A program made the position numbers and the translations under genes. Source: Candidatus Omnitrophota bacterium (lineage in GTDB: Bacteria; Omnitrophota; Gorgyraeia; Gygaellales; Profunditerraquicolaceae). Taken from it: a stretch of DNA of 64,000 nucleotides. The notes beneath the pieces are model-generated. The model had not been told where the DNA came from and did not search any database. It was given only the letters and a program-made list of their open reading frames with translations. The stretch covers positions 14,281 through 78,280 of the forward strand of contig DAONDX010000007.1 in the NCBI GenBank assembly GCA_035402765.1, read 5' to 3'. Shown piece after piece: positions 9,338-47,409 of the stretch. Position 1 is the first letter of the stretch. Each line of letters begins with the position of its first letter.

Positions 9338-9390
9338 AGTAATGTTTCCCCGGGCGCTAAGAGGCTGGGGAAAAATGAGGAGAATAATTC

Positions 9391-10116
9391 ATGGGTCATA
9401 AGGTAAGTCCTTTATTATTAAGGATTGGTTTTATTAGACAGTGGCACTCGCGTTGGTTTGCTAAGCCGAAAGATTTCGCGCTTTTTATACAGCAGGATTT
9501 TAAGATCAGGAAATTTATTAAAAGTAAATTTAAGCAAGCCGCGATTTCTAAGATCGTGATCGAACGTTTAGCGGAAAAAATTAAGGTCCGTATATTTTCG
9601 GCCCGTCCGGGAATTATTATCGGCCGTCACGGTTCAGATATCGAACGCCTGCGTTCGGATTTGAACGGTTTGGTTAAGAACGAGATTTCTATCGATATTC
9701 AGGAGGTGAATAATCCTACCTGGGATGCGCAATTGGTGGCGGAAAATATCGCTTTGCAGCAGGAAAAGAGAATTGCTTTTCGCCGCGCGGTAAAAAGAGC
9801 AATGGAGCAATCAATGCAATCCGGGGTAAAAGGTATCCGGGTCAGCTGTTCCGGCCGTCTTAATGGCGCGGAAATGGGGCGTAAAGAAACATATAAGATG
9901 GGGAGCGTTCCTTTGCAAACTTTACGTGCAGATATTGATTATGGTTTTGCCGAAGCCCTGACTACTTATGGTTTAATCGGAGTTAAGGTTTGGATCTATA
10001 AGGGTGATATCCTAGGAAAACAATTTATTCAGGAAGATATTAAGCCTGTTCAACAGCAGCAGGGTTCCAGAGAAACAGCTCGGCCGGCACGGCCGCATCA
10101 AGACGCTCCGCGCTAA
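9391..10116 (+). CDS. rpsC: 30S ribosomal protein S3
   Basis: MGHKVSPLLLRIGFIRQWHSRWFA is the S3 N-terminus (KH domain), 241 aa with an R/Q-rich tail. Confidence 0.95.
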   Translation: MGHKVSPLLLRIGFIRQWHSRWFAKPKDFALFIQQDFKIRKFIKSKFKQAAISKIVIERLAEKIKVRIFSARPGIIIGRHGSDIERLRSDLNGLVKNEISIDIQEVNNPTWDAQLVAENIALQQEKRIAFRRAVKRAMEQSMQSGVKGIRVSCSGRLNGAEMGRKETYKMGSVPLQTLRADIDYGFAEALTTYGLIGVKVWIYKGDILGKQFIQEDIKPVQQQQGSRETARPARPHQDAPR

Positions 10117-10207
10117 TTGGAATTGCGCGCGTGTTGGTTAGGTAGACAAGACACCCAACGCCAAGCGGAATTGCGTTGGTGTTGTTTAGGTAGACAAGGA
10201 GTATATA
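10117..10207 (+). repeat. repeat family A copy 1: structured 5' leader element upstream of rplP
   Basis: GACAAG-ACACCCAACGC-loop-GCGTTGGTGT-..-GACAAGGAG-ATG. An internal tandem duplication of a ~31-nt unit (ggaattgcg...ttaggtagacaag) is present. Confidence 0.6.
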
Positions 10208-10624
10208 ATGGCTTTAATGCCTAAAAGGGTTAAATATCGTAAGTTACAAAAAGGTCAACGGCGGGGTATAGCGACTACCGGAGCAACCGTTGCTTTCGGT
10301 GAATTTGGTTTAAAATCTTTAGACAACGGTTGGATTAAAAATACGCAAATTGAAGCGGTACGCGTTATTTTAGCCCGCCAGCTGCATAAAGGCGGAAAGC
10401 TATGGATCAGGATTTTTCCGGATAAATCAATAACCAAGAAACCGGCTGAAGTACGTATGGGAAAAGGTAAGGGTGATTTGGATCACTGGGTATGCGTAGT
10501 TAAAAGAGGACGGGTGCTTTTTGAATTAGGAGGAGTTCCCGTGGAATACGCCAAGGCTTGTTTTCGTCTGGCTGCTTACAAAATACCCCTGCGTACTAAA
10601 TTCGTAACCAGGATACATAAATAA
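10208..10624 (+). CDS. rplP: 50S ribosomal protein L16
   Basis: [21 protein letters not shown], 138 aa. Preceded by an unusual 91-nt structured spacer (repeat family A). Confidence 0.95.
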
Positions 10625-13641: not shown

Positions 13642-13712
13642 ATCCCCTTGGGGGATTAATTCGCGCATTAACTTACTTACATTTTAAGTTTGTAAGTTAA
13701 GCGCTCATAAAA

Positions 13713-17876: not shown

Positions 17877-17995
17877 GCCTCAGTAACACGTAAAAATTCT
17901 CTGGAATTTTTACGATTCGGCGGAATAAATTCGCAGACGGCCTGGCGGCCTACGACTTATGTCGCTGTCGCTTCCGTAAGTTGTCTGCTCATTTA
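17877..17995 (+). repeat. repeat family B copy 1: ~120-nt structured leader directly 5' of infA
   Basis: Near-identical to 42755..42887. Hairpin ACGTAAAAATTC/GAATTTTTACG(T), GGCC-tggc-GGCC, and a long-range GCAGACG/TGTCTGC stem ending ...CTGCTCATTTA immediately before the ATG. Confidence 0.65.
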
Positions 17996-18214
17996 ATGCC
18001 AAAAGAAGATTTAATCGAAACAGAAGGAAAAATTATTGAAGCTTTACCGAACGCGATGTTTAAGGTTGAGCTTGAAAACGGGCATGTGGTGTTGGCGCAT
18101 GTTTCAGGAAAAATGCGCATGAATTTTATTAGAATAATTCCGGGTGACAAAGTTAAACTAGAACTTTCTCCTTATGATCTTTCCCGGGGGAGAATTACTT
18201 TTCGGGTGAGATAA
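17996..18214 (+). CDS. infA: translation initiation factor IF-1
   Basis: [30 protein letters not shown]..., S1-like. The ATG at 17996 is preferred over the TTG at 17981. Confidence 0.93.
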
Positions 18215-18328
18215 ATGAAAGTTAAAGCTTCAATTCGTAAAATTTGCGACAAGTGTAAAATAATCAAGAGAAGAGGAGTGGTGCGGGTAATTTGCGTTAC
18301 CACTAAACATAAACAGAGACAAGGATAA
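18215..18328 (+). CDS. rpmJ: 50S ribosomal protein L36 (zinc-ribbon form)
   Basis: Not in the ORF track (37 aa): [37 protein letters not shown], starting 1 nt after the infA stop. Confidence 0.9.
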
Positions 18329-18434
18329 ATAACGCCCCGCGCTAAATTGTTTGGCGCGAAGGTTATATTGATGACAAGACACCCAGCGTTAAATATAATT
18401 GCGTTGGTGTTGTCCTCGCGGACAAGGAGTAGAC
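18329..18434 (+). repeat. repeat family A copy 2: structured 5' leader element upstream of rpsM
   Basis: GACAAG-ACACCCAGCG-loop-AATTGCGTTGGTGTTGT-..-GACAAGGAG. Same stem as copy 1 with an A->G change read as A-U to G.U, and a different loop. Confidence 0.6.
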
Positions 18435-18848
18435 ATGCCAAGGATTATCGGTATTGATATACCTAAAGAAAAAAGAATTGAAATAGCTTTGACTTATTTG
18501 TATGGGATAGGGAGAGCCCAATCCAATATCGTATTAAAAGAAGCCGGCATCAGTCCGTCTAAACGGGCTAAGGATTTAAGCGAAGAAGAAGTTTCGCGGA
18601 TCACGCAGATCTTGCAAAAAGAAGGATCTTTGAGGATTGAAGGCGATCTGCGGCGTGATATTTCTCAGAATATCAAGCGTCTTATGGATATTGGTTCTTG
18701 GAGAGGAATGCGCCATAAAAAAGGGCTGCCGGTGAGAGGGCAGCGTACGCGGACAAATGCGCGTACCAGAAAAGGAAAGAAAAGATCAACTCAGGCCCCG
18801 GTGATTAAAAAAGCTGAAGCGCCAAAGGCTAAGGCTCCAGCTAAATAA
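18435..18848 (+). CDS. rpsM: 30S ribosomal protein S13
   Basis: [26 protein letters not shown]. The start at the ATG at 18435 has a GGAG SD. The ORF-track upstream extension is spurious. Confidence 0.95.
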
Positions 18849-34554: not shown

Positions 34555-34564
34555 GGTTATTAGG

Positions 34565-34725
34565 TTAACGTTGCTGGTTTAGGGAAGGCCGTGTAAATCG
34601 GTCGCAGTTCCCGCTGCTGTAAAAGAGGTCGAAATTCTCTCGTGAGTTTGCCACTGGTTTAACAAAACCGGGAAGGCTAAAGAGAAGAGTAGGTTAGACT
34701 CTTAAGTCAGAAGACCTGATCGGCA
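34565..34725 (+). promoter_or_regulatory. cobalamin (AdoCbl) riboswitch aptamer
   Basis: tAGGGAAggccGTGtAAATCgGtCGCaGttCCCGCtGCTGTAA core, GCCACTG..GGGAAGGC element and B12-box-like AGTCAGAAGACCTGATC. Located immediately 5' of the BtuB-like receptor. Confidence 0.85.
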
Positions 34726-34789
34726 ACACTTGTCCAACTATTACTTTTAAATCCGCGGACAGATTTAAAAGGGTTAGAAACAGGGATAA

Positions 34790-42754: not shown

Positions 42755-42887
42755 GCCTCAGAAGCACGCAAAAATTCTTTAGAATTTTTGCGATTCGGCG
42801 AAGTAAATTCGCAGACGGCCTGGCGGCCTATGACTCACCTGGGCTATCGGCACTGTAAGTCGTCTGCTCATTTAAAGGAGTTTTTAA
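42755..42887 (+). repeat. repeat family B copy 2: ~130-nt structured leader directly 5' of accB
   Basis: Same architecture as copy 1. Hairpin CGCAAAAATTC/GAATTTTTGCG (U-A to C-G covariation), GCAGACG/CGTCTGC stem (G.U to G-C), then AAGGAG SD and ATG. Confidence 0.65.
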
Positions 42888-46744: not shown

Positions 46745-46830
46745 TCAGGCTAACGTTAAATAACTTTACCTTGTCAAAGGGCAGGCGGCGCTAATTGGAA
46801 CCGCGTCGATGTCCTCCAGGCGGAGGAAAA

Positions 46831-47409
46831 ATGCGCGAAAGAATAAAAGATATACTTTTAGAGAGTATTCAGGTAAAAGAAGAGATTTTGCGTAATCAGA
46901 TTGTTCAGATCGCCGAGATTGCCCAGCTCATGATTGATTGTCTCAAAAAAGACGGTAAAGTAATCGTTTTTGGCAACGGCGGTTCAGCCAGCGATAGCCA
47001 GCATATTGCCGCAGAGTTAGTCGGCCGTTTTAAAAAAGACCGTTCAGCATTAGCCGGGATCGCTCTGACTACCAATACTTCGGTGCTTACTTCTTTGGCC
47101 AATGATTATGGCTATGATGTTGTTTTTTCGCGGCAGGTGGAAGCACTGGGCAAGAAGAACGATGTAGTAATCGGAATATCTACCAGCGGAAAAGCTAAGA
47201 ATGTTGCTTTAGGAATTAAACAGGCTAAAAAAATGGGAATTAAGACTATCGCTTTAAGCGGCGGCGACGGCGGGGATATTGTTAAGCTTGCCGATGTAGC
47301 TTTGGTTGTTCCATCTAAAATAACCGCTAGGATCCAGGAAGCCCACATTACGATTGCCCATATAATATGCGAAATGATCGAACAGGCGCTTTGCCAGGAA
47401 CAAAAATAA
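46831..47409 (+). CDS. gmhA: D-sedoheptulose 7-phosphate isomerase (SIS domain)
   Basis: GNGGSASDSQHIAAEL...ISTSGKAKNV. The ATG at 46831 has a GGAGG SD. Confidence 0.85.
   Translation: MRERIKDILLESIQVKEEILRNQIVQIAEIAQLMIDCLKKDGKVIVFGNGGSASDSQHIAAELVGRFKKDRSALAGIALTTNTSVLTSLANDYGYDVVFSRQVEALGKKNDVVIGISTSGKAKNVALGIKQAKKMGIKTIALSGGDGGDIVKLADVALVVPSKITARIQEAHITIAHIICEMIEQALCQEQK

Follow-up and report, generated by a model that had tools for sequence, protein, structure and literature searches.

A previously undescribed family of structured, Shine–Dalgarno-supplying repeats between stop and start codons in Omnitrophota operons

Introduction

MIRUs are intercistronic repeats that often lie in direct tandem, are co-oriented and co-transcribed, and overlap stop and start codons; they have been proposed to insert at start codons while preserving expression of the downstream gene (PMC3184786; PMC12548453). 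The repeat family that we describe here in Omnitrophota resembles them in several respects: co-oriented units of 40–100 bp lie in tandem in operon gaps, overlap with stop or start codons occurs, and sites are empty in one relative and filled in another. The two differ in how the downstream gene is served. MIRUs rely on a small ORF within the unit, coupled at −4 nt; the Omnitrophota family has no coupled internal ORF and instead supplies a Shine–Dalgarno (SD) sequence, so that its downstream start follows an SD and is not overlapped by a stop codon. Tetranucleotide direct repeats mark filled MIRU sites but none are seen at the Omnitrophota sites. The families come from different phyla and share no sequence similarity, and the Omnitrophota one has a covariation-supported hairpin with a conserved loop.

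The Neisseria REP2 and Borrelia IR elements offer a second comparison. Like the Omnitrophota family, they are dispersed, lack terminal inverted repeats (TIRs), stand immediately upstream of ORFs and provide two stem-loops, predicted at the RNA level, and a ribosome-binding site (PMC3184786). REP2 elements, however, measure 120–150 bp, carry a promoter and an ATG, number about 25 copies and define a contact-regulated gene set, whereas the Omnitrophota units are 48 nt long, mostly intercistronic, tandem or nested, and contain a promoter-like sequence in one copy only. REP/BIME elements are likewise short imperfect palindromes that form high-copy mosaics, mostly in co-directional or convergent gaps, are transcribed and have ends that sometimes supply stop codons (PMC3733652). 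In contrast to the Omnitrophota family, they bear an unpaired GTAG or CGTC tag, form inverted dimers and lie near the 3′ end of the upstream ORF at a variable downstream distance; the Omnitrophota units lack the tag, form direct tandems with a 48-nt period and are locked to the downstream start codon. MITEs such as Correia are also small, non-autonomous dispersed repeats and can provide adjacent genes with promoters or processing sites (PMC3184786), but they have TIRs and target-site duplications and occur in either orientation. The Omnitrophota family has no target-site duplication, replaces the spacer into which it is placed and is 100% sense-oriented.

The S4 leader of the alpha operon and the L4 leader of the S10 operon share position with the elements reported here, which lie before rpsM or inside the S10 cluster and are structured RNAs adjoining the SD. 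Unlike those leaders, the Omnitrophota element is not conserved at these positions, precedes unrelated genes and has no covariance-model match. Judged by these analogies, the family is functionally closest to MIRU and to the Neisseria REP2 and Borrelia IR elements, and to a lesser degree to REP/BIME, while being a member of none of them and resembling none of them in sequence.

Two ribosomal protein spacers carry a tandem element

The window, by which we mean the whole 64-kb stretch of Omnitrophota DNA that was analysed, contains a canonical S10–spc–alpha cluster running from tuf (4711) to rplQ (21509). Between the end of rpsC (10116) and the start of rplP (10208) lies a spacer of 91 nt, and between the end of rpmJ (18328; stop codon 18326–18328) and the ATG of rpsM (18435) one of 106 nt. 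The two spacers share a direct repeat of 59 nt (10145–10203 and 18373–18431) that is 78% identical, which bears out the original prediction of a common structured element. A degenerate third copy of this repeat is found 48 nt upstream, at 10097–10155. The motif GACAAGACACCCARCG occurs in the window only at 10145 and 18373 (chance expectation 0.22), and the 3′ arm AATTGCGTTGGTGTTG only at 10169 and 18397, with a degenerate copy at 10121; for both arm motifs, 0.2–0.5 matches would be expected by chance in 64 kb. The rplP and rpsM arrays are collinear over ~105 nt, with an overall identity of 67%. Their sequence was recovered in four independent public assemblies at 99.9% identity and is therefore not an assembly artefact.

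The rplP array consists of two units on the forward strand. Unit a (10103–10150) is a degenerate 48-nt unit with a covariance-model (CM) score of 39.3 bits (E = 3.9e-10), built from a 5′ arm ACGCUCCGCGC, a loop UAAUUGGAAUU and a 3′ arm GCGCGCGUGU, followed by UUAGGUAGACAAG. It covers the final codons of rpsC, and the UAA of its loop (10114–10116) is the rpsC stop codon. The element thus begins inside rpsC, at ~10099–10103, and not at 10117, where its start had been placed. Unit b (10151–10209) is assigned from a CM score of 72.8 bits (E = 2.4e-20) and from pair counts. Its hairpin 1 pairs 10151–10161 with 10173–10182, leaving C10156 bulged, and its hairpin 2 pairs 10183–10187 with 10192–10196; the SD AAGGAG (10196–10201) and the rplP ATG (10208) follow. 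Every frame of unit a is closed by a stop codon, through the loop UAA and a pair of UAG within CUAGGUAGAC. In unit b both UAG are present and the loop UAA is missing, the rpsM units have fewer stops, and units other than unit a contain a stop in one or two frames.

The rpsM array has the same arrangement on the forward strand. Unit a′ (18332–18378) begins 3 nt past the rpmJ stop codon and is strongly degenerate (ACGCCCCGCGC-UAAAUUGUUUG-GCGCG...GAUGACAAG); its assignment is based on the collinear alignment with the rplP array and on a partial CM match of 10 bits at 18337–18358. Unit b′ (18379–18437; CM 63 bits, E = 2.3e-17; pair probabilities 0.6–0.9) forms hairpin 1 from 18379–18389 and 18401–18410 and hairpin 2 from 18411–18415 and 18420–18424, ahead of the SD GGAG (18426–18429) and the rpsM ATG (18435). 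A duplication had been proposed for the rplP copy alone; the duplicate does exist, but as the first unit of a dimer with a 48-nt unit, and the rpsM copy too is a two-unit array, whose first unit is the more degenerate. The 10-bp stem with its bulged C, the loop ending in AATT and the GACAAG box fused to GGAG were all found as described. The A-to-G change between the copies (18386) indeed gives a G·U pair, and a C-to-U change at 18389 gives a U·G pair.

The repeat unit folds on the sense strand

A unit spans 48 nt and consists of hairpin 1, the small hairpin 2 and then (A)AGGAG. In hairpin 1, a loop of 11 nt separates the 5′ arm (11 nt, including the bulged C) from the 3′ arm (10 nt), with the consensus ACACCC-NN-CGC / GCG-NN-GGUGU around the loop UAAUYGGAAUU. 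Hairpin 2 is variable, with 5–7 bp (UUGUYU/RGACAA). The parts conserved in sequence across the family are the loop, the bulged C and the outer stem. The tail AAG of a unit leads either into the next unit or into GAG, completing an AAGGAG placed 5–6 nt before the start codon. A unit may stand alone, in direct tandem or nested, and the long forms contain a complete unit within the loop of another (L008, L108, L117, L154 and L163).

Support for the structure comes from an alignment of 15 family members (A1), on which the covariance model R1 is based. All cells of hairpin 1 are paired in A1 (100%), its two inner pairs running through GC, AU, CG and UG; for hairpin 2 the figure is 89%, and three of its pairs covary. 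None of 500 shuffles reached the observed covariation score, and sliding the pairing partners lowered pairing to 23–58%. RNAalifold predicted hairpin 1 independently. In a CM-derived alignment of 27 distinct sequences, which leans towards the model, hairpin 1 is 98% paired. In hairpin 2, each of the five pairs has changed on both sides. The cells of hairpin 1 include 16 G·U or U·G pairs against a single A·C, an excess that a duplex binding site would not predict and that indicates a fold of the sense strand. By these comparisons the sense strand of the element folds, with hairpin 1 supported by covariation. Single-sequence folds also give the proposed hairpins, but since their z-scores, −1.5 to −1.9 relative to shuffles, are not exceptional, we do not count single-sequence energy as evidence and take the support for the structure from the covariation of the family.

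The rplP array is predicted to adopt an equilibrium fold that crosses the units (−34.4 kcal/mol, against −24.3 kcal/mol for the modular fold), in which the pair probability of hairpin 1b is 0.2–0.6. A switchable conformation, as suggested for this copy, thus exists in silico; such alternatives are generic for tandem palindromic units, and comparative evidence of their use was not found. The predicted fold is closed by GCUCC (10105–10109, in the last rpsC codons) pairing with GGAGU (10198–10202, at the rplP SD), a helix that a terminating ribosome would open. This pairing may be an adaptation or may be due to chance. The rpsM array has CCCC at the matching place and lacks this pairing.

Empty and filled sites in related species

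Homologues of L16 place the window in Candidatus Omnitrophota. The nearest other species (L086, L087 and L088) have an L16 that is 96% identical and ~83% DNA identity across the cluster. In all three, rpsC ends in CAU UAA, followed by 12–15 nt to the rplP ATG (15 in L086, 12 in L088), and the rpmJ–rpsM spacer measures 27 nt. The spacers had been expected to be conserved if the element were a regulatory motif of these operons; they are not. The element is likewise absent from both junctions in L002–L013. In the window, the native rpsC UAA and most of the native spacer have been replaced by the element, and the C-terminus of RpsC, which reads ...RPARPH* in the sister species, reads ...RPARPHQDAPR*, a gain of five residues (QDAPR). 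The empty sister sites, together with the replaced stop codon and spacer, identify both ribosomal protein copies as recent, lineage-specific insertions. Across filled sites, the native stop and spacer are replaced at AAGG or SD-like sequences, and target duplications are absent. The native 3′ end of rpmJ is AGACAAGG in all three species compared (18317–18324 in the window, L086 and L088); this octamer also marks the boundary of the repeat unit (GACAAGG), and may be either microhomology for insertion or the source from which the box arose.

Other junctions of the cluster are occupied in the relatives. The element precedes rplF in L086, L087 and L088 (rpsH–rplF junction), a two-unit array precedes rpsK in L086 (rpsM–rpsK junction), arrays precede rpsH and rplF in L008, and one precedes rpsG in L001. 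Ribosomal protein loci of more distant Omnitrophota (L16 identity ≤87%) contain no element.

As an unbiased sample we used the region syntenic to 36–57 kb of the window in four sister species, 82 kb in total. It contains seven arrays, all in sense orientation and in gaps between co-directional genes, and their occupancy is species-specific. The pfkA–gmhA junction is filled in three of the four sister species as well as in the window, the fourth (L247) having another hairpin family there. The efp–accB, x–pfkA (x being a gene without a Pfam match), accC–asp23 and thiC–tRNA junctions are each filled in one species only. Where it is unfilled, accC–asp23 reads TAA|ATG with a spacer of 0 nt, so the inserted element must have brought its own AAGGAG. 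An array of three tandem units upstream of a tRNA gene (L250, 13400–13705) is the sole one that is not followed by an SD and a start codon.

In a 2-kb contig (L085, 1–2035; JGI 3300025867), rplP is joined not to rpsC but to a DUF5679 zinc-ribbon gene with an array of hairpins of this family. The junction to rplP falls exactly within the repeat, and unit a accounts for seven of the eight mismatches with the window, a clustering that points to a chimera or recombinant at the repeat. Two loci were probably fused across the repeat during assembly. The contig is evidence for a further locus in the population and a warning for metagenome-assembled genomes (MAGs) of this clade.

Size and distribution of the family

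Run without filters, R1 detects four units in the window: two at rplP, one at rpsM and one at a third locus, between pfkA (end 46744) and gmhA (ATG 46831). The last of these (46781–46839, forward strand; CM 28.6 bits, E = 7.6e-7) has a degenerate hairpin 1 and a hairpin 2 of CCUCC/GGAGG, so that its SD is paired. Orthologous, better preserved copies are present in L248, L250 and L251. In related loci R1 gave 28 matches, and we count ~27 arrays in related contigs. A metagenome scan with a 16-mer of the 3′ arm returned 119 loci, most of them chance matches in coding DNA, of which ~14 were true after hairpin filtering. Nothing significant was found in 1.2 Mb of ribosomal protein loci from other phyla, where no match exceeded 16 bits. 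Candidates from viral contigs (39 pattern matches of 19–23 bits) were discarded as unrelated sequences, with no true member among them.

The genes downstream of the arrays are unrelated to one another. They encode S7, an IDH/IPMDH-type dehydrogenase, an aldolase, a SemiSWEET, CarB, a NuoD/hydrogenase subunit, a nuclease, aspartate kinase (twice) and PGI, and further include gmhA, pfkA, accB and asp23. All ~27 arrays are sense-oriented between co-directional genes, and an SD and a start codon follow all but one. The SD ends 4–10 nt ahead of the start codon in 20 of 20 arrays. On the upstream side, the stop codon of the ORF is exactly the loop TAA in 5 of 20 arrays and lies within 1 nt of the 5′ arm in 5 more. 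The density of three loci in the 64-kb window and seven arrays in the 82 kb of sister genomes, extrapolated from ~150 kb, suggests a copy number on the order of 100 per genome. Searches of Rfam gave no match to the elements at gathering score and chance-level matches at E ≤ 10 (DUF2815 RNA, 18.9 against 41.2 bits), and a literature search on Omnitrophota repeats returned nothing relevant. The element therefore matches no described Rfam family.

Other hairpin elements in the window and relatives

Several further structured elements occupy spacers in these genomes. A second hairpin-plus-SD family (family B; UUUCCCC...GGGGAAAAAUGAGGAG) is found in the rplV–rpsC spacer of the window (9338–9390) and in L001 (9181–9209 and 9973–9994), L086 (9245–9271), L088 (18402–18424) and L247 (~9990–10048). 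It lies before rpsC in the window, before rpsC and rplP in L001, before rpsK in L088 and between pfkA and gmhA in L247, where other species have the main family (family A), which indicates that cassettes swap at one junction. A dispersed hairpin (family C; UUCGCGCAUUAACUUACUUAC...GUAAGUUAAGCGC) is present in the rplF–rplR spacer (13642–13712) and, at non-orthologous positions, in L001 (2178–2234), L004 (2409–2434) and L008 (7910–7935 and 8447–8472). A structured element of ~120 nt occurs twice in the window with 82–89% identity, between map and infA (17877–17996) and between efp and accB (42755–42875), and ends just ahead of the SD of infA and accB; the sister species have 12–15 nt at efp–accB. 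Its long stem shows a compensatory change from CACGUAAAAAUUC/GAAUUUUUACG to CACGCAAAAAUUC/GAAUUUUUGCG, and no Rfam match was obtained for it at gathering score. The window also contains a cobalamin riboswitch (34558–34738, 79.9 bits), which is unrelated to the repeat family.

Alternative explanations for the element

In E. coli, an S4-binding site precedes rpsM (Rfam RF00140), and both copies in the cluster stand directly before ribosomal protein cistrons and adjoin the SD. The original prediction offered an autoregulatory or processing motif; on this reading a protein encoded in the S10–spc–alpha cluster, such as S4, S13 or L16, would bind hairpin 1 and repress translation of rplP and rpsM. 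We regard this as extremely improbable: the nearest species have empty sites of 12–27 nt at both junctions, the copies are not confined to a regulator's operon but precede unrelated genes, and the best match to Alpha_RBS (RF00140) scores 9.7 bits on the rplP copy against a gathering score of 38, with none on the rpsM copy. The non-conserved spacers and the copies at unrelated genes leave the ribosomal protein reading unsupported and, with the Rfam result, largely refute it. Another alternative is a broader regulatory role as the cis-acting RNA of a post-transcriptional regulon, in which a dedicated protein, CsrA-like or other, reads the loop and bulged stem and jointly controls the translation of many housekeeping operons, the copies being retained for this purpose. 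A conserved loop, bulged C and outer stem with two covarying inner pairs are what protein recognition would leave behind; the position relative to the SD is fixed, and the strict placement at start codons together with the conserved loop and bulge could equally mean retention for a trans-acting factor. Orthologous copies persist across species at pfkA–gmhA and at the aspartate kinase gene. In roughly half of the members a loop GGA is combined with ACAAGGA at the SD, an arrangement that we take to resemble a dual CsrA site. The loop GGA, however, is present in only 7 of 15 members, with GGU, UGA, UGU and UAA among the variants and none in the rpsM copy, so that the reading as a CsrA-type dual GGA site fails. 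Junction occupancy also turns over between species at ~83% identity, and a tblastn search, a weak test on 410 kb from partial genomes, found no CsrA-like gene. We therefore consider a regulon quite unlikely.

The same hairpin could be read as DNA. It is a bulged, imperfect palindrome whose stem ends are conserved while its inner pairs vary, and it is arranged in mosaic, tandem and nested forms at high copy number, as in REP/BIME. Such a hairpin might be kept, like REP sequences, for recognition by a transposase specific for single strands (RAYT or IS200/IS605-like), the RNA fold being idle. That the element is purely selfish at the DNA level nevertheless appears doubtful to us. The ends of first units carry no unpaired GTAG or CGTC tag: their 5′ flanks are not conserved and the 3′ flank varies (UGUC, UGUG, UGUU or CCCC). 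GTAG was considered as a REP tag and rejected; as GUAG it sits inside hairpin 2, and only in one subfamily, and it is absent from the first-unit flanks and from the GUAC subfamily. Units are repeated directly and not as inverted dimers. Unlike REPs, they are anchored to the start codon downstream and not to the 3′ end upstream, and the strand bias always follows the genes. A tblastn search with an IS200 TnpA sequence found no Y1 transposase in 410 kb of partial genomes, again a weak test. An alternative at the level of transcription is an internal promoter with the inverted repeat as operator for a DNA-binding repressor. A promoter of the alpha operon before rpsM is known in E. coli, and inside unit b′ a sigma-70-like sequence (ATGACA-17-TATAAT; 18371–18399, forward strand) matches at 11 of 12 positions, its −10 hexamer being derived loop sequence. 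The match is confined to the rpsM copy: other members lack it, and the −10 of the rplP copy and the consensus is poor (CGGAAT or GGAATT). It is one of only two such sites on the forward strand in 18 kb, but overall the region holds as many promoter-like sites as chance predicts. The compensatory changes and the prevalence of G·U over A·C point to a single strand that folds and not to an operator in duplex form. As an account of the family this is unlikely; the rpsM site itself may be an exapted internal promoter for rpsM-rpsK-rpsD-rpoA-rplQ or a chance match. An intrinsic terminator was also considered and rejected: hairpin 1 is not followed by a U-tract, and neither the rplP nor the rpsM site gave a terminator call.

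Discussion

The element belongs to a repeat family that is of a generally known kind but previously undescribed; unusually, its members are held between a stop and a start codon, supply the SD and colonize the ribosomal protein cluster. In our view it is probably a lineage-specific, high-copy intercistronic structured repeat of one Omnitrophota clade, present at the two ribosomal protein junctions through recent insertions and not as an ancestral leader. What was observed directly is that insertion sites are polymorphic, that copies are dispersed to unrelated genes, that their orientation is strictly sense, and that the element carries the SD and sometimes the stop codon. The original prediction had offered a small mobile structured repeat as its other possibility, and the presence or absence of the element at individual junctions and its dispersal to unrelated genes support this. 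The pattern of presence and absence suggests that the element is mobile; our search found no transposase, no TIR with target duplication and no other signature of mobilization. Speculatively, the replacement at AAGG or SD-like sequences and the octamer shared with the 3′ end of rpmJ suggest a spread by recombination at microhomology rather than by cut-and-paste with target duplication.

A model for the tolerance of such insertions follows from the anatomy of the unit. With its own SD, and sometimes its own stop, the element could land in tight, coupled operons without silencing the downstream cistron, an argument also made for MIRUs, where a coupled mini-ORF takes the place of the SD (PMC12548453). 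In the polycistronic mRNA, hairpins 1 and 2 would form, lengthening and structuring the spacer, which should weaken stop–start coupling; the SD would stay exposed for de novo initiation, and the hairpins may act as local RNase barriers. Tight stop–start spacing is known to favour translational coupling, and structure just past the stop lowers it (PMC12548453). By these coupling rules, an insertion of 90–100 nt with hairpins should break the coupling of rplP to rpsC and of rpsM to rpmJ. The SD of the cassette would compensate by permitting independent initiation, which would explain how insertions survive in essential operons. At rplP the SD and start codon are predicted to be somewhat more accessible with the element (0.54 against 0.27–0.37 for the SD), and the result at rpsM is mixed; the differences are small and inconsistent between the two sites, a hint at most, and we draw no conclusion from them.

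A more far-reaching reading would make the element a self-propagating initiation cassette, comprising a stop, two hairpins and an SD, that inserts at intercistronic junctions by means of SD/AAGG microhomology and whose conserved loop and bulged stem are recognized by an RNA-binding protein dedicated to it, so that ribosomal protein and central-metabolic operons form one regulon. The rplP copy would then restore coupling through pairing of CUCC in the rpsC tail with GGAG of the rplP SD. We hold this to be very unlikely. If it were true, spread of the cassette would bring ribosomal and central-metabolic operons in these small-genome Omnitrophota under common post-transcriptional control.

Returning to the lineage-specific repeat that we favour, a tempting false lead, a new ribosomal protein leader, gives way to a documented case of a repeat family that colonizes the most conserved operons of a bacterium. 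Its insertions in the S10–spc–alpha cluster have rewritten the C-terminus of S3 and exchanged native intercistronic signals for the SD of the element. For annotators, the family explains odd spacers, extended ORFs and chimeric contigs such as L085 in Omnitrophota MAGs, and for RNA biology it adds a covariation-supported motif absent from Rfam. For the study of genome evolution, its natural pairs of filled and empty sites offer material for testing how operons tolerate the loss of tight coupling.
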